This document shows positions 2,916 through 63,045 of a stretch of 64,000 nucleotides of DNA, piece after piece. This DNA comes from Bacteroidales bacterium. GTDB taxonomy: Bacteria > Bacteroidota > Bacteroidia > Bacteroidales > P3. The notes under the pieces were generated by a model that saw only the letters and a list, made by a program, of their open reading frames with translations, was not told where the DNA came from and did not search any database. The translations under genes and the position numbers were made by a program. The stretch spans positions 3,662 to 67,661 of the forward strand of contig JAGAYN010000044.1 of NCBI GenBank assembly GCA_017940465.1. Reading direction: 5' to 3'. Position 1 is the stretch's first letter. Every line of letters starts with the position of its first letter.

Positions 2916-3091
2916 CTCCCCGTATATTACCAATCCCATCAACTCCCATTAACCCCATGAACAATTCCCCCAATCCCTCGACAATCCTTCGACAATCCTT
3001 CGGCGGTCTTCCCACCCTCTCCCTTCTTCGTGCCTTCTTCGATCCTTCTATGATCCTTACTTTATAACAATGAAAACAAGATAAAAAAACG

Positions 3092-3872: not shown

Positions 3873-4862
3873 ATGAAATACCGGCAATACAAAATAGTAC
3901 ACTTCTCCGAAATTGAGGACAAAAAGTTTGGCAGAGCATGGCGCATTCAGGCATTAGCCGAAGGAATACATCCCGACTGCACGGTTAGTTTTATGTTCTC
4001 CAATTTATACAGCAAAGCAGGGTTTTCGGAGTACTTCATCGCCCCCTACAACAATTATGTAATGGACGAGATAGAAGACATTGCTTTGCGCGGTGACGTA
4101 TGGTCGCCCGACACCAATGACTGGACGGTCGACAAGGAAAACACTATCGTGGACGGCATCCCCGTAATCACACACCACTATTGCGGTAGGTTGCAAGATA
4201 AGGCGCAGAAACCGGAGGACTGTAGTTCTCGAATTGCAAGTTGGATGCCATTATTCCAATTGATTATTGCAGAAAAATCCGACCTAAAACATAATACAGA
4301 TGCAGAAACAGGAATTGAATACTTTGAATGCGGAAAAGTGAAAGGATTTGTAAGTCCTTCGGCGATGAATGAACTTGGCAATGAGGTTTACAGCATGGGG
4401 GATTTCAAAGTGGCTATGATATCCTTCAAAGAAACCGCCCCCCAACCATGGCTGCTTTACGTTCCACCGAAATCCAAATTGGCAACAAGAAACACCTCGC
4501 AGCAACAAAGTGCAGATACATTACTCAAAATTGGAGAGTGGCGACAGGCTTTCCCCTTGGCAAAAAGAGCGATGGAGAAAAGCATGGAGGAAATGGGAAA
4601 GACTTTCAAATATGACTACAACATACTTAAGAAAGACCCCGAAGAGAATCCAGAAACTGGGATTTGCTTCGACCGCTTTGTTGAAAGCAATGTCCAACAT
4701 TTTCTACCTGCAATAAGAAATATGTTGAGAGTTTTCGACATGGCGATTAACGATATCGACAAGTGCAATGCAGCGGTGAATTACGAGGATGAACTGGAAG
4801 AAATAAAACAAACAGTTGACAAGATGGTGCACGATGCCAAAAAACCTTTTGAGAATGATTGA
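3873..4862 (+). CDS. Hypothetical protein (329 aa)
   Basis: Long ORF starting 7 nt after the WG-repeat gene stop, AT-rich like that neighbour. No motif I recognise. Confidence 0.6.
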   Translation: MKYRQYKIVHFSEIEDKKFGRAWRIQALAEGIHPDCTVSFMFSNLYSKAGFSEYFIAPYNNYVMDEIEDIALRGDVWSPDTNDWTVDKENTIVDGIPVITHHYCGRLQDKAQKPEDCSSRIASWMPLFQLIIAEKSDLKHNTDAETGIEYFECGKVKGFVSPSAMNELGNEVYSMGDFKVAMISFKETAPQPWLLYVPPKSKLATRNTSQQQSADTLLKIGEWRQAFPLAKRAMEKSMEEMGKTFKYDYNILKKDPEENPETGICFDRFVESNVQHFLPAIRNMLRVFDMAINDIDKCNAAVNYEDELEEIKQTVDKMVHDAKKPFEND

Positions 4863-7099: not shown

Positions 7100-8389
7100 A
7101 TGACTACAACATTAACTTCAGCAATCATCATCATCCTGGTCGTCATCCTGCTGCTGGTGGCGCTGCTCCTTGTGCTGCGCGCCAAGCTGGTGCCGCAGGG
7201 CAACGTCAAGATTACCATCAATGAAGATAAGGAACTCACCGCCCCGACGGGAGGCACCCTCATCTCCACCCTCGGCGAGCAAGGCATCCACCTGCCCTCG
7301 GCCTGCGGCGGCAAAGGCAGCTGCGGCCAGTGCAAATGCCGTGTCGTCCGTGGCGGCGGCGAGATTCTCCCCACCGAGAAAGGCTTCTTCAGCCGCAAGC
7401 AGCAGCAGGAGGGCTGGCGCCTCGGCTGCCAGGTGAAGGTCAAGGAAGACCTCGCCCTCCGGCTCCCCGAGAGCATCCTCAGCATCAAGGAATACGAGTG
7501 CACCGTGGTCAGCAACAGCAACGTCGCCACCTTCATCAAGGAGTTCAAGGTGCAGCTGCCCGCCGGCGAGCACATGGACTTCGTGCCCGGCAGCTACGCC
7601 CAGATCAAGATACCGAAGTTCACGGTGAAATACAGCGACTTCGACCGCTCCCTCATCGGAGACGAGTACCTGCCCGCCTGGGAGAAGGCGGGGATGTTCG
7701 ACCTCGTCTGCACGAACACCGAGCCCACCGTCCGCGCCTACTCCATGGCCAACTATCCCGCCGAGGGCGACGTCTTCATGCTCACCGTCCGCATCGCCAC
7801 CCCGCCGCTCACCGCCGACCGCAGCGGATTCCAGAAGGTCAACCCCGGCATCGCCTCTTCTTATATATTCTCGCTCAAGCCCGGCGACAAGGTCATCATG
7901 AGCGGCCCCTACGGCGAGTTCAGCGTCCGCGGCACCGCCGACGGCACCTGGAGCGACGACCCCAAGGGCAACGAGATGATCTGGGTCGGCGGCGGCGCCG
8001 GCATGGCCCCCCTCCGCGCACAGATCATGCACCTCACCCGCACCCTCAACTGCACCCACCGCCCGATGCACTACTTCTACGGCGCCCGCGCCCTCAACGA
8101 GGTCTTCTACCTGCAGGATTTCCTCCAGCTCGAGCAGTCGCACCCCAACTTCCACTTCCACCTGGCGCTGGACCGTCCCGACCCTGCCGCCGACGCCGCC
8201 GGCGTGAAGTACACCCCCGGCTTCGTCCACAACGTCATGCTCGAGACCTACCTCAAGGACCACCTCGCCCCCGAGGACATCGAGTACTACATGTGCGGCC
8301 CCGGTCCCATGAGCAAGGCCGTCATCCAGATGCTCGACTCCCTCGGTGTCCAGCCCGAGAGCATCGCCTTCGACGACTTCGGCGGCTGA
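7100..8389 (+). CDS. nqrF: Na+-NQR subunit F
   Basis: N-terminal TM helix, 2Fe-2S motif CGGKGSCGQCKC, FAD/NADH domain (RAYSMANYP, GGGAGMAP). Confidence 0.92.
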   Translation: MTTTLTSAIIIILVVILLLVALLLVLRAKLVPQGNVKITINEDKELTAPTGGTLISTLGEQGIHLPSACGGKGSCGQCKCRVVRGGGEILPTEKGFFSRKQQQEGWRLGCQVKVKEDLALRLPESILSIKEYECTVVSNSNVATFIKEFKVQLPAGEHMDFVPGSYAQIKIPKFTVKYSDFDRSLIGDEYLPAWEKAGMFDLVCTNTEPTVRAYSMANYPAEGDVFMLTVRIATPPLTADRSGFQKVNPGIASSYIFSLKPGDKVIMSGPYGEFSVRGTADGTWSDDPKGNEMIWVGGGAGMAPLRAQIMHLTRTLNCTHRPMHYFYGARALNEVFYLQDFLQLEQSHPNFHFHLALDRPDPAADAAGVKYTPGFVHNVMLETYLKDHLAPEDIEYYMCGPGPMSKAVIQMLDSLGVQPESIAFDDFGG

Positions 8390-8603
8390 TTTCTGCTACT
8401 CCTGCTGGCCACCACAGTCAGCACGCAGCAGGCCCGCCGCTATTGAGCCGCCGGGCCACTCTCGTGGAACGCCTTCCACCAACACTTCTGGCAGCGCTAC
8501 CGCCTGCCAGCCTCTTGGCACCCCGTTCCTCCGAATTGTCTCGCTGGAGCATCGATGCACGCCTGATGCTGATGCGCAACAAATACGGATTCTTTTACTT
8601 TTT

Positions 8604-8878
8604 TTTGCCACGTCGGAAAAAGTTCGCATCTTTGCACTCGCAAAACCGATAGGACGGTTTGCCGAGAAAGTTGCATTATCGCCTTATTCCGATTGTGTGA
8701 ACCTAGACAATTTACACGTCATCCGTAAAGTTAGGAATAGAGGAAATCCGATATGCTCCCATGGATTGATATCCACCTGTGGGGCAATTCAGAATACCTT
8801 TATATTCACTTTACGGGGAAGTCTAGGCCCTCACACAAGAAGATAGAGACTTAATGGATGGCTCCACTTTCTTCGTTG
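8604..8878 (+). ncRNA. Conserved promoter + structured 5' leader element, copy A
   Basis: TTTG (8604-8607), 19 nt, CATCTTTG (8627-8634). Blockwise alignment to 58608-58893 and 61079-61365. Ends in AATGGATGGCTCCACTTTCTTCGTTG, 72 nt before the ATG at 8950. Confidence 0.6.
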
Positions 8879-8949
8879 TATTAATTCACTCGCCGAAGAG
8901 CCTGTTGGCAAACTAACAGTTGCGCACGACACGTACCAGTGACACATTT

Positions 8950-9951
8950 ATGACCCAAACACACAAACTCCTCACCCTGGCCCTCGCCGCCACCCTCGCC
9001 TTCGCAGCCTGCGACAAAGACGATAACTCGGGTAAACAAATTGAATGGATGGAGGATTATTACTACAGTTCCTCTAGTCGCTCTACCGATGGGCGTTTTC
9101 ACCGAACCAGATTCTCTTGGGAGGGAGGACAGCTTAGGCGGCTGGAGTATTTCGACGCCGACAATCAGCGGGTTATATACTACATCGAAATAGTCTACGA
9201 GGACGGCAAGGCGAAAGAGGTGCGCGGGTACGATGAGTCCGGGAAAGCATGGGAGTCTGCCACCCTCTCTGCCACCCTCTTCTACACGGATGACAAAATA
9301 ACGAGCATCCAGTCTTCTTCCTATGCCGTCACGTACGAATACAACTCCGCCGGCGAGCTGGTCAAAGTAACCGGGTCGGATGGCTCCACCACCACCTTCC
9401 TCTGGGAGAACGGCAACATTGTTGAAGAGCGCCATGAAGACAGAATCACGACCTATACCTACGACAACAAGACAAACCCATACCATTCGGCATGCATCGT
9501 TGCATACCTTGGTGAACCAGGCGCTCGAATGCTTTCCCGAAACAACATCGTCAGCGAAACCTACACAAGCGGAGACTACGAAAGCCGCGATGAGTATTCA
9601 TATACCTACGACGGCGACTACCCCACCACAGTAACATCCAACACCTCCGACGGAAAAGATGTTACCTACTTCCGCTATACCGACGGCAGCGGCATGTCCG
9701 CCCCGGACATGTGCCACATCAAAATCGAGGACGGATACGAAGACCATGAGAGTAGACCCTACTACGTATATGGCGTCGGCACCTATGCCAAAGGCGACAA
9801 GGTTATCATTAGCACAGATGCGGACTACTTCCACGACGACACCTTCTACATCTTCTCCCACTGGAGCGACGGCAACACCGACAACCCCCGCACCTTCACT
9901 GCCACCGCCGACGTCACCCTCCGGCCCGTCTACACAGCCGCCGAGTATTAA
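8950..9951 (+). CDS. Lipoprotein with YD/RHS-like beta repeats
   Basis: ATG 8950 gives MTQTHKLLTLALAATLAFAAC (lipobox). Repeat-like segments include YEYNSAGELVKV and YTYDNKTNPY. Paralog of 58974..59747 (shared FSWE block and repeat pattern). Confidence 0.8.
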   Translation: MTQTHKLLTLALAATLAFAACDKDDNSGKQIEWMEDYYYSSSSRSTDGRFHRTRFSWEGGQLRRLEYFDADNQRVIYYIEIVYEDGKAKEVRGYDESGKAWESATLSATLFYTDDKITSIQSSSYAVTYEYNSAGELVKVTGSDGSTTTFLWENGNIVEERHEDRITTYTYDNKTNPYHSACIVAYLGEPGARMLSRNNIVSETYTSGDYESRDEYSYTYDGDYPTTVTSNTSDGKDVTYFRYTDGSGMSAPDMCHIKIEDGYEDHESRPYYVYGVGTYAKGDKVIISTDADYFHDDTFYIFSHWSDGNTDNPRTFTATADVTLRPVYTAAEY

Positions 9952-9982
9952 AAAACACCCTCCACGGCTGCTCTATGCCCCT

Positions 9983-10016
9983 GGCCCGCGACCCCGTCGC
10001 GGGCCTTTCTCTTTTT
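9983..10016 (+). terminator. Rho-independent terminator of the 8950 gene
   Basis: GGCCCGCGA / TCGCGGGCC stem followed by TTTCTCTTTTT. Confidence 0.7.
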
Positions 10017-10160
10017 GCATCCCCGGAGCACTCCTGCCAATGCCCTACAGGATAAAAAGAGGAGCAAAACCTATAGCATACAGCATACTGGCAATCAACA
10101 TGTTATACTGGTGCATTTTTCGGCCGTTTTCGGGTTTTTGTGCGAAAAACGGGCGGAGAT
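10014..10160 (+). repeat. Conserved 3' element, copy A
   Basis: GCATCCCCGGAGCACTCCTGCC, then a purine-rich box, then CATACAGCATACTGGCAATCAAC. Aligns with 59806-59950, 62910-63045 and, inverted, 21486-21612. Confidence 0.6.
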
Positions 10161-10264
10161 TCCACGTGCTGCACAGACAGCATGTATCATGCTGGTTTTC
10201 AATATATATGCGTATATTACATTTAAAAGGCAACGGCAATGCGCCGTATATTGTTTTTATTTCG

Positions 10265-10272
10265 TATCTTTG
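10265..10272 (+). promoter_or_regulatory. -7 box (TATCTTTG) of the sdh/frd operon promoter
   Basis: TTCGTATCTTTGCACCC lies 46 nt before the sdhC ATG. The same TTCGTAnnTTTGCA context recurs at other genes here. Confidence 0.55.
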
Positions 10273-10317
10273 CACCCTCGAAATAAGTGATAATACTATC
10301 GTACAATATTAAAATAT

Positions 10318-11283
10318 ATGCAGTTACCCAAAATCCACTCCATCACGAAGAAGATGCTGGTTGCCTTGGTGGGCGGCTTTCTGCTCCTCTTCCTGCTGTT
10401 CCACATGACGGCCAACCTCTTCATCCTGCGCCACGACGACGGCGCATGGTACTCCGCCTTCTGCCACTTCATGGGCACGAACTGGGTGGTGAAACTGTTT
10501 GAAGTCGTCCTGCTGGGCGTCCTTGCGCTGCACATCCTGCTCACCCTCTGGCTGGCCTTGACCAACAGGCTGGCCCGCCCCGTGCGCTACAAGCAGCGCC
10601 AACGCTCGGAGACCCACACCACGTCGAAACTCATGATGTGGACCGGCATCCTCATCTTCGCCTTCCTGGTGATGCACTTCTGCCAGTTCTATTTTGTAAA
10701 AATCGGCTGGGTGAAGGGCGAATACATGGTGGAGGTGGAGAAGTTGCAGACCGATGAGGTGAACACCGTGCAGCAGTTCTCCATGCAGCAGGGGATGAGT
10801 CCGGAGGACTTTGTCTCCAGCCTCGAGGGGCAGCTGGCCATGTATGCCGACCAGATGCCGGCCGAGGAGTATGAGTCCATGGTGCAAAACATCGCCAACC
10901 TGCGCGGCGCCGTGCCGGTGGCCGGGCTGCTGTCCGACGCCGTCGCGAAAGGCCACCTGAGCGAGAACCGCAAATGGGTGCGCCACCTCGACTACGACCA
11001 GCGCCAGATGCTCAAGAAGACCGTCCCCGACTGCGGCGTCGAGCCCGACTTCTACTACATGAGCCGCCAGTTGTTCCACAACGCGCTCATGGTCATCCTC
11101 TACCTCATCGCCTTCGTGGCCCTCTTCATGCACCTCACCCACGCCTTCCCCTCGGTGTTCCAAAGCCTGGGACTGAACAACTACAAGTACAACAATTTCA
11201 TCGAAATCTGCGGCAAGATATACACCTGGGTCATCACCCTCGGCTTCGCCGCCGTGCCCATACTCGTCTACATCGGCCTGTAA
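10318..11283 (+). CDS. sdhC: Succinate dehydrogenase/fumarate reductase cytochrome b subunit (b558 type) with long hydrophilic loop
   Basis: Five predicted TM helices with His residues at 29, 72, 120 and 272. First gene of the CAB operon. Confidence 0.85.
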
Positions 11284-11317
11284 AATCTCAACTTTCACCT
11301 TTCAATTTTCAATTCGA

Positions 11318-13282
<1,965 letters not shown>

Positions 13283-13285
13283 GCC

Positions 13286-14041
13286 ATGCACTTCATTCTA
13301 CATATCTGGCGCCAAGAGAACGCCCGCGCCAAAGGGCACTTCGAGACCTACGAAATCGACAACATCAGCGCCGACTGCTCGTTCCTCGAGATGCTGGACC
13401 AACTGAATGAGAAGCTGGTCAATGACCATATCACCCATCCCGTCTGCTTCGACAACGACTGCCGCGAGGGCATCTGCGGCATGTGCGGCCTCTACATCAA
13501 CGGCCGTCCGCACGGCAACGACGACGGCGTCACCACCTGCCAGCTCCACATGCGCCACTTCCACGACGGCGACGAGATCTGGGTAGAGCCCTGGCGCGCC
13601 AAGGCATTTCCCATTATCCGCGACCTCGTGGTGGACCGCACGGCCTTCGACAAAATCATCCAGGCCGGCGGCTACATCAGCGCCACCACCGGCGGCGTGC
13701 CCGACGCCAACAACATCCTCGTGCCCAAGCACAAGGCCGACCAGGCCATGGATGCCGCCGCCTGCATCGGCTGCGGCGCCTGCGTGGCAGCCTGCAAGAA
13801 CGCCTCCGCCATGCTCTTCGTCGGCGCCAAGGTGAGCCACCTCGCCCTCCTGCCCCAGGGCAAGCCCGAAGCGCAGGACCGCGTCTACAAGATGGTCTGC
13901 AAGATGGACGAGCTCGGCTTCGGCGCCTGCACCAACACCTATGCCTGCGAGGCCGAATGCCCCAAGCAAATCAAGCGCCAGAACATCGCCCGCATGAACC
14001 GCCACTGGCTGGGCAGCCTGCTCGGCCGCGACCGCAACTGA
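13286..14041 (+). CDS. sdhB: Succinate dehydrogenase/fumarate reductase iron-sulfur subunit
   Basis: Cluster motifs [33 protein letters not shown]. Confidence 0.95.
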
Positions 14042-20607: not shown

Positions 20608-21423
20608 TTACGTCAATTCCCGTGAACAGATGTCCTGCATGACGAGGCCCGCGAGGGTGAAGCCGTAGATGGCTGTGATGTGGGCCAGGGAGCCGTTGAT
20701 CTGTGCCTTGGAGGTGCACCACTCGTGGTTGAGCAGGTCCTGCCGCCCCTCAACCTGTTCGGCCTTGGGACAGAGGCAGGCCGCCGTGCCGCACGAGCGC
20801 ACCGCCTGCCCCAGATTGGGCAGCACCTCGGGGCTCCACACGCACTGGAACTTCCGCTGCGGGAAGCGTTTCTGCCGACGCATCCTGCGACGCAGCACCG
20901 CCGCCAGCGGGCAGCCGTCGACCTTCCAGAACTCGCTGACGCGCACCTGCGTGGGGTCCATCTTCAGGGCCGCTCCCATGGAGCTGAAAAAACGCGGCGC
21001 GCCGGAAACAGTGGCGCGGATGATGAGCTCCAGCTTGTCCTTCAGGCTGTCGATGCAGTCTATCACGTAGTCATACCCCTCCAGGTGGAAGCTGTCGGCG
21101 GTCTCGGCGCAGAATATCTCCTGCAGGGCCGTGACATCGGCGTAGGGATTGATCTCCAGCAGGCGGTCGCGCAGGGCGTCCACCTTCACACGTCCCACGG
21201 TGCGGGTGGTGGCCATGCTCTGGCGGTTGATGTTGGTGACGCACACGCGGTCGGAGTCCACCACGGTGATGTGCCCCACCCCGCTGCGCACCAGGCTCTC
21301 GGCGCACCATGACCCCACGCCGCCCACGCCGAAGACGATGACCCGCGCCGCCCGCATCCGCTCCATCGCCGCCGCGCCCACCAGGAGCTCCGTGCGGTTG
21401 AGTATGCCTTTTTCTGTTGTCAT
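20608..21423 (-). CDS. tcdA: tRNA threonylcarbamoyladenosine dehydratase (ThiF/HesA family)
   Basis: VIVFGVGGVGSWCAESLVRSGVG and VVDSDRVCVTNINRQ. An alternative start at 21444 is possible. Confidence 0.8.
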   Translation of the reverse strand: MTTEKGILNRTELLVGAAAMERMRAARVIVFGVGGVGSWCAESLVRSGVGHITVVDSDRVCVTNINRQSMATTRTVGRVKVDALRDRLLEINPYADVTALQEIFCAETADSFHLEGYDYVIDCIDSLKDKLELIIRATVSGAPRFFSSMGAALKMDPTQVRVSEFWKVDGCPLAAVLRRRMRRQKRFPQRKFQCVWSPEVLPNLGQAVRSCGTAACLCPKAEQVEGRQDLLNHEWCTSKAQINGSLAHITAIYGFTLAGLVMQDICSRELT

Positions 21424-21485
21424 CCGATATATTTCTTTCAGCAACAGGGGGATAACGCCCTCGCGACGGCTTTATTGCGCAGGGC

Positions 21486-21612
21486 TCGATTTTTTGATTT
21501 TTTTTGCCCCGGAGGAGGAAAAATGCAGGATTACAACAGGCTGGAAACCAACATTCTGTATGCTATAGGTTTTGCTCCCCTTTCTATCCACCTGGTCTCC
21601 TCCAAGGGGGCT
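21486..21612 (-). repeat. Conserved 3' element family, copy D (inverted, not attached to a cassette)
   Basis: The reverse complement reads GGAGCAAAACCTATAGCATACAGAATG...CAGCCTGTTGTAATCCTGCA. This matches 10060-10090 and 59889-59910. Confidence 0.55.
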
Positions 21613-21674
21613 GCCGGGCGGCAGGCGGGGATGAACTGTTTTTCATCATCGCTTGCCGAATGCAAATAATTTCG

Positions 21675-58607: not shown

Positions 58608-58893
58608 TTTGCCGTATGAGAAAAAGTTTGTACTTTTGCACCCGCAAACCGCCGAGACATGGTTTGCCGAGAAAGTTGCATTTTTCGCCTTATTCCGAGT
58701 TTGTGAACTTGGCCGTTCATCAATAATGATATGTAGGAATAATAGGGAAGATGAATGCTCCTGTTTGGAATGTATGCACATGAGATACATCCAGTGTGGA
58801 GCGAATCATTAAACCATTATTTTATATCATTGGGAGGCCAAGCCCACACAAACAAAATAGTGCCAAGAATGGATGGCTCCACTTTCTTCGTTG
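58608..58893 (+). ncRNA. Conserved promoter + structured 5' leader element, copy B
   Basis: TTTG (58608-58611), 19 nt, TACTTTTG (58631-58638). Conserved blocks and helices are described in the findings. Ends 80 nt before the ATG at 58974. Confidence 0.6.
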
Positions 58894-58973: not shown

Positions 58974-59747
58974 ATGAAAGTAATACGATTATTACTGGCA
59001 ACAACGCTCCTGGCACTCGGAGCAACCCTGACCTCCTGCTCCAACGACGACGACAAAGCCGGCATGGGAAAGGCCCTGACCAGGCTCACTCTCGAAGATG
59101 AAGACGGCTACTACCAATCCCTCCACTTTTCCTGGGAGGACAACAAGGTAAGCTTCATTCAAGTTTGGGAATCAAATCGTTATGGAAACATGCTTCTTTC
59201 TGCCGAACTGACGCCAGAATACCGCAACGGCAAACTGGAATCCTGCTATGCCTACAGTGCAGAAGACCGCTCCGGCATCACCCTGCAAGGCAACTACACT
59301 GGCAATCAACTCACTCAAGTACAGATTCCTCGCGAGGACCCCGCACTGCTCAGCTACGACACCGAAGGCAACCTCCGCTCCATTAACATCAACCACGACC
59401 AGCTCTCCTTCTCGTGGAGCGGCGGACGCATTACACAAATCATCGACCCTGATGGGCGTTCTGTTTCCGTGACGTGCGACGACAAACGCAACCCGCTGAA
59501 CGATGTCATCCGCTGCATCATAGGCTCTTGGAGCGCCACAATGGGCAATATCACACGCCTGGTAAACTACCGTGGCGAAACCGTCGACCTCCAGTACACC
59601 TTCGACGGCGACTACCCCTCGCAGTGCCGTGTCATTGTGGATGGGAAAGTAGGCGGCATCCTATATTACGAGTACGCAGACGGCAGCGGTTCGGCTCCGG
59701 CCAACCTTCCCGCCAACTACAGCAAGAAAAGCTGGCGCATCTTCTAA
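58974..59747 (+). CDS. Lipoprotein with YD/RHS-like beta repeats (paralog of 8950..9951)
   Basis: ATG 58974 gives MKVIRLLLATTLLALGATLTSC (lipobox). Contains HFSWEDNKVSF, YDTEGNLRSI and FSWSGGRITQIIDPDGRS. Confidence 0.8.
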   Translation: MKVIRLLLATTLLALGATLTSCSNDDDKAGMGKALTRLTLEDEDGYYQSLHFSWEDNKVSFIQVWESNRYGNMLLSAELTPEYRNGKLESCYAYSAEDRSGITLQGNYTGNQLTQVQIPREDPALLSYDTEGNLRSININHDQLSFSWSGGRITQIIDPDGRSVSVTCDDKRNPLNDVIRCIIGSWSATMGNITRLVNYRGETVDLQYTFDGDYPSQCRVIVDGKVGGILYYEYADGSGSAPANLPANYSKKSWRIF

Positions 59748-59774: not shown

Positions 59775-59809
59775 GGGACACCTATGCCTTGCAGAGGTGT
59801 CCCTTTTTT
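59775..59809 (+). terminator. Rho-independent terminator of the 58974 gene
   Basis: GGGACACCT / AGGTGTCCC stem followed by TTTTTT. Confidence 0.75.
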
Positions 59810-59950
59810 GCATCCCTGCCATCCTCCCGGAGCACTCCTGGAGGGTAAGGAGAGGGGAAGAAGAGGGTGCCTCTTACATACTGAAAAACAGCCTGTTGCA
59901 AAACTGCAACTTAGGGCTGTTTTTCGGTTTTTTTTCGGAAAATCTGCAAA
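59806..59950 (+). repeat. Conserved 3' element, copy B
   Basis: TTTGCATCCC...CCGGAGCACTCCTGGAGG, then GAGGGGAAGAAGAGGGTGCCTCTTACATACTGAAAAACA, then a hairpin at 59889-59919 with a T-run at 59920-59936. Confidence 0.6.
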
Positions 59951-59969
59951 GGATTGCGGGGGTGTGTCG

Positions 59970-61078: not shown

Positions 61079-61365
61079 TTTGTCATATCTGGAAAAGTTT
61101 GTACCTTTGCACTCGCAAACCGCAAGAGTATGGTTTGCCGAGAAAGTTGCATTTTTCGCCTTATTCCTGGCTTGTGAAACTTCGACAACTTCACTAATGA
61201 TATACGGAACAAAGGATAGATTGATGCTCCTGATATGGTATATGTATTTTCCTATGCAATACCTTTGTGGAGCGGTTCATTACACCTTTATTTTATATCA
61301 TAGGGAGTCGAAGCCCTCACAAGCAAGATAGGGTTGCAAATGGAAGGCTCCACTTTCTTCGTTGC
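61079..61365 (+). ncRNA. Conserved promoter + structured 5' leader element, copy C
   Basis: TTTG (61079-61082), 19 nt, TACCTTTG (61102-61109). Ends in AATGGAAGGCTCCACTTTCTTCGTTGC, 72 nt before the ATG at 61438. Confidence 0.6.
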
Positions 61366-62889: not shown

Positions 62890-62909
62890 TACGGATATCT
62901 CTCCCAGCC

Positions 62910-63045
62910 AGTCTCCTGCCACATACCTGGCAAAGACGAAGAGGGGAAGAAGAGGATACCCTTAACATACTGGAAATCAACGGGCCAAAATCTGACGATT
63001 TTGGCCCGTTTTGGGGTTTTTGAACGGAAAATTTCGAGGTTCGGG
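62910..63045 (+). repeat. Conserved 3' element, copy C
   Basis: CTCCTGCC...GAGGGGAAGAAGAGGATACCCTTAACATACTGGAAATCAAC, followed by a hairpin with a T-run. Confidence 0.6.
62982..63021. terminator. Terminator hairpin between the 61438 gene and dnaE
   Basis: GGGCCAAAATC / GATTTTGGCCC stem followed by GTTTTGGGGTTTTT. Confidence 0.7.

Follow-up and report, generated by a model that had tools for sequence, protein, structure and literature searches.

A ~140-base non-coding intergenic repeat with a phased polypurine core, found behind leader-driven genes of an uncultured rumen Bacteroidales

Three genes of the analysed Bacteroidales DNA possess a common promoter and a ~290-nt leader, and each of them is followed by a similar element of ~140 nt (copies A, B, and C). 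This raises the question of what the shared 3' element is and whether it belongs to the leader-driven genes or to the genome at large. The window, i.e., the whole analysed stretch of 64,000 nt, corresponds to positions 3662-67661 of contig C42 of the genome designated here as G000 (2.24 Mb, 56 contigs, 59% G+C). The genomes designated G003, G006, G012, and others served as relatives for comparison, G012 being a sister species. The results presented below identify the 3' element as a copy of a ~140-base non-coding intergenic repeat that occurs in a few uncultured rumen Bacteroidales.

The original prediction described a similar stretch behind all three leader-driven genes, and copies A, B, and C were indeed found there. 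A profile built from these three copies scores them at E = 1e-40 to 1e-44 and indicates a fourth, weaker copy in the window. The features are as follows:

10012-10160, + strand: copy A, A-type subfamily; variable 5' part at 10012-10049
10050-10077, + strand: core of copy A, GGATAAAAAGAGGAGCAAAACCTATAGC
~10084-10099, + strand: CATACTGGCAATCAAC box of copy A
10124-10152, + strand: hairpin of copy A with T and A runs, CCGTTTTCGGGTTTTTGTGCGAAAAACGG
59806-59952, + strand: copy B, main type; pyrimidine-rich 5' part at 59806-59839
59840-59868, + strand: polypurine core of copy B, 11-nt-phased
59881-59903, + strand: CTG-N5-CAGCCTGTTGCAAAA box of copy B
59890-59918, + strand: hairpin of copy B; T runs at 59919-59935 and CGGAAAATCT at 59936-59945
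62900-63037, + strand: copy C, main type; 5' hairpin GTCTCCTGCCA..TGGCAAAGAC at 62911-62937
62938-62956, + strand: core of copy C, GAAGAGGGGAAGAAGAGGA; CTGGAAATCAAC at 62970-62981
62983-63008, + strand: hairpin of copy C, GGGCCAAAATC-TGAC-GATTTTGGCCC; GTTTTGGGGTTTTTG at 63009-63023
21513-21624, - strand: fourth, weaker copy found with the profile; A-type core GGGGAGCAAAACCTATAGCATAC, then CAGCCTGTTGTAATCCTGCA

Copy A is located 60 nt past the stop codon of lipoprotein gene A and 157 nt ahead of frdC, and copy B ends 17 nt short of the stop codon of the convergent GSCFA gene. Copy C begins 10 nt past the stop codon of a Sel1-like gene and ends 10 nt ahead of the stop codon of the convergent dnaE gene, and the fourth copy lies immediately upstream of the gene at 20608-21444 on the - strand. 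The original statement that each ORF has its own terminator holds for gene A (hairpin at 9983-10005) and gene B; it does not hold for the gene ahead of copy C, where the element follows the stop codon almost directly. The 15-mer GAGGGGAAGAAGAGG is exact in copies B and C and has 6 matches at no more than 2 mismatches, versus 0.11 expected. In addition, the tail of the element (TGCATTTTTCGGCCGTTTTCGGGTTTTTG; 10112-10140, 59905-59933, and 62994-63022) is 72-76% similar to the leader segment TGCATTTTTCGCCTTATTCCGAGTTTGTG (58677-58705 and 61148-61176), which may be a chance similarity of T-rich sequence or a shared module. The window also holds two further small 11-mer families, with GGTATCC and CGGAGTTGA units, and the 3' box of the element is absent from both.

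The genome-wide inventory proposed with the original prediction was carried out by iterating the three-copy profile over the whole genome G000. BLAST with copy C gave 38 matches, the three-copy profile gave ~100, and the iterated profile gave 106 copies, i.e., approximately one per 21 kb. The copies are dispersed over more than 30 contigs, and 81 of the 106 are clear of gene calls. By core type, 79 copies are of the main type (GGGGAAGAA), 12 are A-type (GAGCAAAACCTATA), and 15 are other or degraded. At least 96 copies have no leader nearby, and the supposed specificity of the element for leader cassettes is not supported; of the two properties that were named as speaking against such a link, ubiquity was observed, whereas the absence of any preference for leader loci was not (see below).

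The median pairwise identity of independent copies is 74%, and pairs above 90% occur only within larger duplicated segments at contig ends. The copies are star-like, i.e., closer to the consensus than to one another. Five copies (91-100% identical) of a larger repeat break the assembly at contig ends of G000 (C2:25250-25753, C8:1-300, C36:17200-17690, C37:107700-108218, and C46:13900-14394). Each of them carries an element copy divergent beside a gene starting with MAKSYQGYMGPIIGKLGPSVGYLWRG, followed in three of the five by tandem GC-rich REP-like palindromes (GGCAGGGGTGGAGGCCGTAGGCCGTAACCCCTG).

From 5' to 3', the element consists of a fast-changing array of pyrimidine and then purine 11-nt units, a polypurine core, a CTG-N5-CAGCCTGTTGCAA box, and a GC hairpin of variable sequence that is followed by T and A runs. 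The polypurine core (GAGGGGAAGAAGAGG) is nearly invariant and comprises two 11-nt units, GAGGGGAAGAA GAGGGGAAGAA GAGG. Conservation along the aligned copies is uneven: the first 40-50 nt at the 5' end are almost freely variable, AAGAAGAGGGGAAGAAGAGGATGCC is all but invariant, and gCTGg.AA.CAGCctgTTG.Aaa is well conserved and is followed by the variable GC hairpin, T runs, and C.AAAAA. The CATACWG sequence proposed earlier as the common core is therefore peculiar to the window copies, and the terminal GGTT.CGGGGG, though truly common to copies B and C, is shared by these two only and lies outside the family profile.

The 11-nt phasing was noted in several ways. At a lag of 11, the core matches itself at 0.59 and the pyrimidine-rich 5' part at 0.40, versus ~0.3 at other lags, and TRF reports a tandem repeat of period 11 with 2.5 copies in copy B. 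The phased array is clearly visible in some copies, as in CCACCTCCCTG CCACCTCCCTG CCACACACCAG GGAGGGAAGAA GAGAGGAAGAA GAGGGTGCC. The pyrimidine units are approximately complementary to the purine units and the array can pair as an inverted repeat, which gives the 5' part hairpin potential. Among the 132 purine or pyrimidine runs of at least 18 nt in the genome, 80 fall inside element copies.

The positions of the copies relative to genes were assessed using our own codon-usage gene caller, which missed some genes, so the spacer counts are approximate. Copies were found in 27 of 163 divergent spacers, in 41 of 1208 tandem spacers (30 copies co-oriented with the genes and 9 opposed), and in 9 of 174 convergent spacers (8-9 copies, B and C among them); per spacer, they are about threefold commoner in divergent than in convergent spacers. 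Since copies occur in all three classes, neither a terminator nor a promoter role covers all of them. Moreover, copies between divergent promoters are expected to be untranscribed on either strand, which argues for a DNA-level nature of the element. Approximately ten copies, including C, begin within ~15 nt of a stop codon, two of them a few nucleotides before it, and approximately ten copies stand behind a separate terminator hairpin with a T run, like A and B. At three places in G000 (C32:19803-19936, C14:12232-12427, and C18:113620-113762), the upstream ORF extends 10-15 nt into the element, which supplies its last codons and stop. The orientation of copies relative to replication, judged by GC skew, is 46:39, a ratio that is uninformative because local skew tracks the gene strand.

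An RNA-level module, namely, a portable terminator and/or 3'-end stabiliser or a small RNA derived from the 3'-UTR of the upstream gene, would agree with the co-orientation in tandem spacers, with the presence of a hairpin and T run, and with the many copies, C included, that begin 0-20 nt from a stop codon with no other terminator. In copy C, an 11-bp stem precedes GTTTTGGGGTTTTTG. A crude scan found terminator-like hairpins in 29 of 81 copies, the corresponding figures being 19 of 81 for the reverse strand and 15% for control gene ends; a second terminator scan called none in copy B or C. Whole copies B and C fold far better than shuffled sequences (z = -5.0 and -3.8). However, their reverse strands fold as well as the forward strands, copy A has z = -0.6, and segments of the element average only -0.1 to -0.7. 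This pattern points to inverted repeats in DNA and not to a conserved RNA fold. According to the Rfam analysis, there was no match at the gathering score or at E-value thresholds, the sole weak match being a chance miRNA (E = 0.19). No covariation was seen: pairing in the extension of the CTG-N5-CAG stem did not exceed that of shuffles (57 vs. 56.1, 52 vs. 48.5, and 27 vs. 24.7), and RNAalifold with 59 full copies gave nothing but short invariant stems. In addition, genes A and B have separate terminators, 27 copies have divergent promoters on their two sides, and 9 run antisense to the two neighbouring genes. A role of this kind is thus very unlikely as the explanation of the family. The same observations do not support the suggestion of a separate small transcript, for which no promoter of its own was found either: no same-strand TTTG..TAnnTTTG promoter was seen directly upstream of copies in divergent spacers. 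Pairing between leader and element RNA was also considered and rejected, as duplex energies were inconsistent against shuffles (z from +0.8 to -3.0) and whole-length duplexes are meaningless.

The 11-bp phasing and the nearly invariant core could also indicate an array of two or three purine units bound by a protein of the response-regulator or AraC type that controls the co-oriented downstream gene. In line with this, 61 of the 81 copies clear of genes have a co-oriented downstream gene, canonical -7 boxes (TAnnTTTG) of such downstream genes cluster 140-210 nt past the core, and divergent spacers are enriched over convergent ones. On the other hand, the distance to the promoter is broad and not fixed, and the downstream genes that were read, namely, frdC, an arginine decarboxylase-type gene, and two genes that we take to be hisS and folP from their first residues, are housekeeping genes unrelated to one another. 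The 8-9 copies in convergent spacers, B and C among them, have no promoter to regulate, and some 90 nt of further conserved sequence would be superfluous for a binding site. We therefore regard regulation of this type as unlikely. Two promoter candidates within or near the element were rejected: a sigma-54 promoter at TGG..TTGCA, where the GG-to-GC spacing is 15 nt and not 12 by our count, and an outward promoter at the 3' end, where the -7 boxes follow the terminal TTTTG only after 75-115 nt, a distance too great for the two to pair. A-type or degraded copies were also noted upstream of a multi-copy gene family starting with ATGGCAA(T/A)... (MAI.EQG-like) at C37:30260-30386, C51:19258-19344, C10:59546-59632, C42:438-515, and C7:54075-54167 of G000. 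Runs of the heptamer ATTCTTC precede two copies of G000 (C10:59546 and C27:75185).

As for the distribution of the family, it was found in 3 of the 19 sampled genomes of the genus (G000, G003, and G006); 12 other families of the order lacked it. Of 185,579 species genomes, only four other rumen MAGs (RUG) contained the exact 21-nt core, and viral contigs gave no match. It was also present in 34 metagenome stretches; 31 of these could be aligned to this genome (79-90% identity), and the remaining three could not. A search of the literature found no description of this repeat family, and it represents a previously undescribed, narrowly distributed mosaic intergenic repeat, the unusual feature of which is the phased polypurine core.

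Individual copies are kept or lost between sister species independently of the neighbouring genes. For the eight best copies of G000, G006 lacks four and G003 lacks at least three, and six of nine syntenic copies from other genomes have a counterpart in G000. Beyond the core, the likeness of orthologous copies does not exceed that of random paralogues, so these copies do not distinguish selection in place from replacement. The three window sites differ in their history. At site A, the element is present ahead of frdC in G000, G003, and G006, the orthologues in the latter two being A-type, and G003 has no leader or lipoprotein gene there. The G006 copy at site B adjoins the GSCFA stop codon and is 86 nt away from the neighbouring gene, and no leader or lipoprotein B accompanies it; in G003 and G012, both the element and the cassette are missing from this site. 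An orthologous copy is present in G006 at site C, next to the dnaE stop codon, and the neighbouring genes are different. The element is thus kept without a leader gene in relatives at two of the three window sites.

In the sister species G012, 211 matches were found to a different phased 11-mer array (GTAGGGAGTTG), often abutting inverted arrays; this array is absent from G003 and G006 and has few matches in G004 and G015. The spacer upstream of frdC, which holds copy A here, contains in G012 (L019, C3, ~4630-4840) a palindromic GTAGGGAGTTG array and then ACTGATTATGAG. The whole nqrF-frdC spacer (window 8390-10317; L016-L019) contains different genes in each species, and its length is 1.9 kb in G000, 2.8 kb in G004, 3.5 kb in G012, and 4.4 kb in G003. 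This makes it a variable spot beside the nqr operon.

The high copy number within a narrow clade, the variable presence between species at 80-88% DNA identity, the star-like family, and the different family amplified in the sister species would all fit a non-autonomous mobile element (MITE- or REPIN-like) with a transposase acting in trans and with the core and box as its recognition sites. Nevertheless, no terminal inverted repeats were found in the aligned copies and their flanks: the 5' end is C-rich and ill-defined, the 3' end consists of T/A runs, and the conserved part is internal, not terminal. Near-identical independent copies, expected of a recent MITE, were also not found, given the above median identity. 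In public contigs of the same species, the three sites that were checked show 100% identity, so that no polymorphism, empty site, or target duplication is readable in them, and relatives without a copy are only 80-88% identical, with spacers that align too poorly for the boundaries of empty sites to be read. The absence of the core from viral contigs likewise speaks against mobility. A link with RAYT genes was rejected: the genome contains six Y1_Tnp (PF01797) genes, none with an element copy within 350 nt, and their flanks carry other GC palindromes. Taken together, a mobile element is a rather unlikely explanation. RAYT-like genes of G000 were located at C10:24022-25189, C27:15984-17229, C15:49735-50920, C49:29283-32471, and C49:43198-44236. 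Five of the six are bracketed by their own GC-palindrome arrays (e.g., TTACGCCGTAGGCGTTTCCGTTTCATAGACAG, about 8 times), and the sixth (C49:43548) has repeats on one flank, so that, in addition to the element, several classical REP/RAYT systems are present in this small genome.

The association with leader genes is nevertheless real and beyond chance. Ten full-length leaders were found in G000, weaker matches to the leader profile representing the generic promoter only. Seven of the ten are followed by one gene and then by a co-oriented element within 0.9-1.5 kb, against a background of 35 of 1601 genes (~2%) with a co-oriented element behind them (binomial p = 3e-10). In the relatives, three of six leaders in G006 and four of six in G003 have the element behind. 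The leader genes that have the element behind them are mostly members of one diverged lipoprotein family (25-57% identity) with weak matches to RHS repeats and DUF4595; this family includes lipoproteins A (8950-9951) and B (58974-59747), comprises at least five genes in G000, and is also represented in G003 and G006. Since these leader genes are mostly paralogues, a large part of the link is explained by co-duplication of leader, gene, and element, and in this respect the earlier idea of a 3' boundary of a duplicated unit is partly supported, the family having perhaps been duplicated with its flanks. Such co-duplication does not extend to four leader-plus-element loci (copy C, L050, L056, and L059) with ORFs unrelated to the lipoprotein family, and co-duplication consequently does not explain the whole association.

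These observations bear on a further possibility, namely, that leader and element are the conserved 5' and 3' arms of a recombination site exchanging cassettes of secreted-protein genes, comparable to integron attC. The excess behind leaders in all three genomes would suit this, as would two orthologous sites (C15 vs. L049 and L050 vs. L061) that retain leader and element around ORFs which vary in number or have an identity of only 32%. By a raw count, the flanks of one to three of the eight best copies lie on different contigs in the relatives. An inversion in G006 also fits: comparison of its locus L017 (C6:25500-33000) with window positions 8600-14041 finds frdCAB inverted between two inverted element copies (L017 positions 2953-3074, + strand, and 7148-7282, - strand), and from this arrangement the inversion looks like a product of recombination between the copies. 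At the same time, a leader is missing from more than 90% of copies, relatives without the cassette retain the element at sites A, B, and C, and descent accounts for much of the link, most of the associated genes being paralogues. The consensus has no GTTRRRY-type core site or other attC-type conserved boxes, the copies are dispersed and not arrayed, and a likeness of ~74% makes them poor substrates for homologous exchange. A dedicated cassette site is accordingly highly improbable, while the dispersed copies may play a part in recombination or may bind a protein, the two roles raised together in the original prediction.

The explanation that we prefer, and consider probable, is that the element is a lineage-restricted, high-copy, non-coding intergenic DNA repeat of the BIME/BOX/ERIC kind, which belongs to the DNA level and owes its excess behind leaders mainly to co-duplication. 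If it acts at all, the element would act at the DNA level, about one third of the copies being situated between divergent promoters, with the phased polypurine core as a putative docking or structural (topological) site. In a copy standing behind a co-oriented gene, the hairpin and T run could also end transcription. The leader-gene excess would have arisen mainly when the lipoprotein family was duplicated along with the leader and the trailing element, and recombination between dispersed copies may afterwards have shifted genes around them. As points against this explanation, the core could serve the element's own spread instead of the host or could stay alike by gene conversion, and the 30:9 orientation bias together with the T run would fit a termination or other RNA-level role as well.

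A more far-reaching scheme, which we consider decidedly doubtful, would make the core and box genome-wide docking or supercoil-absorbing sites for a lineage-specific factor. The set of sites would have been swapped between sister species (GAGGGGAAGAA in G000, G003, and G006 and GTAGGGAGTTG in G012) as part of a co-evolving repeat-and-protein system, and the copies would additionally provide a 3' homology arm for duplicating or exchanging leader-driven surface-protein genes.

Among known systems, REP elements are rare in divergent spacers, whereas the element described here is enriched in them. Among the closest counterparts are the BIME/REP mosaic elements of enterobacteria (Nunvar et al. 2010, PMC2817692; Di Nocera et al. 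2013, PMC3733652). Like these, the element is high-copy, extragenic (81 of 106 copies), modular, non-coding, and lineage-specific in sequence, with hairpins and a location at transcript boundaries, and it may plausibly serve the host in termination, at mRNA ends, or in DNA topology. Unlike these, it conserves a polypurine 11-nt-phased tract and the CTG-N5-CAGCCTGTTGCAA box, while a REP unit is an imperfect GC-rich palindrome of 20-40 bp with a GTAG/CGTC head; the palindromic parts of the element vary in sequence. It also flanks no RAYT gene, although six RAYT-like genes with other REP arrays are present.

The element resembles BOX of Streptococcus pneumoniae and ERIC/IRU of enterobacteria in size (100-150 bp), in copy number (~100), in its mosaic of conserved and variable parts, in the lack of a known transposase, in a position upstream or downstream of genes, and in a debated function. 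BOX and ERIC elements are long imperfect palindromes without 11-bp phasing; in the present element, only the 5' array and the 3' hairpin are palindromic, its sequence is unrelated, and its host belongs to another phylum. For a review, see PMC3184786.

The arrays of integron attC repeats stand with their cassettes beside an integrase and have conserved R/L core sites. Similarity of the element with attC/VCR consists in a structured conserved repeat directly behind variable, promoter-less-looking ORFs, as seen 3' of seven of the ten leader genes. In contrast to attC/VCR, the element is dispersed, stands mostly not behind a cassette, has no R/L core sites, and survives without the cassette. Within the Bacteroidales, BrickBuilt of Porphyromonas gingivalis is presented in the title and abstract of its description as a minisatellite within a MITE (Klein et al. 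2015, PMC4596501). As far as that summary allows comparison, both are dispersed intergenic elements containing short tandem units; the present element differs in having no terminal inverted repeats and in an array of two to six units of 11 nt.

For annotation, these results mean that the 3' element is neither a cassette component nor an RNA gene and should be masked as a repeat when rumen MAGs are scanned for regulatory RNAs. With ~106 copies, a presence in approximately five species, and no RAYT link, it provides a well-delimited example of an undescribed class of 11-bp-phased intergenic repeats of uncultured Bacteroidales. Its excess behind leader-driven lipoprotein genes offers a route to studying how families of surface proteins spread. 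If the core binds a protein or buffers supercoiling between divergent promoters, the element would be a Bacteroidales counterpart of the BIME/gyrase or BIME/IHF sites of E. coli.
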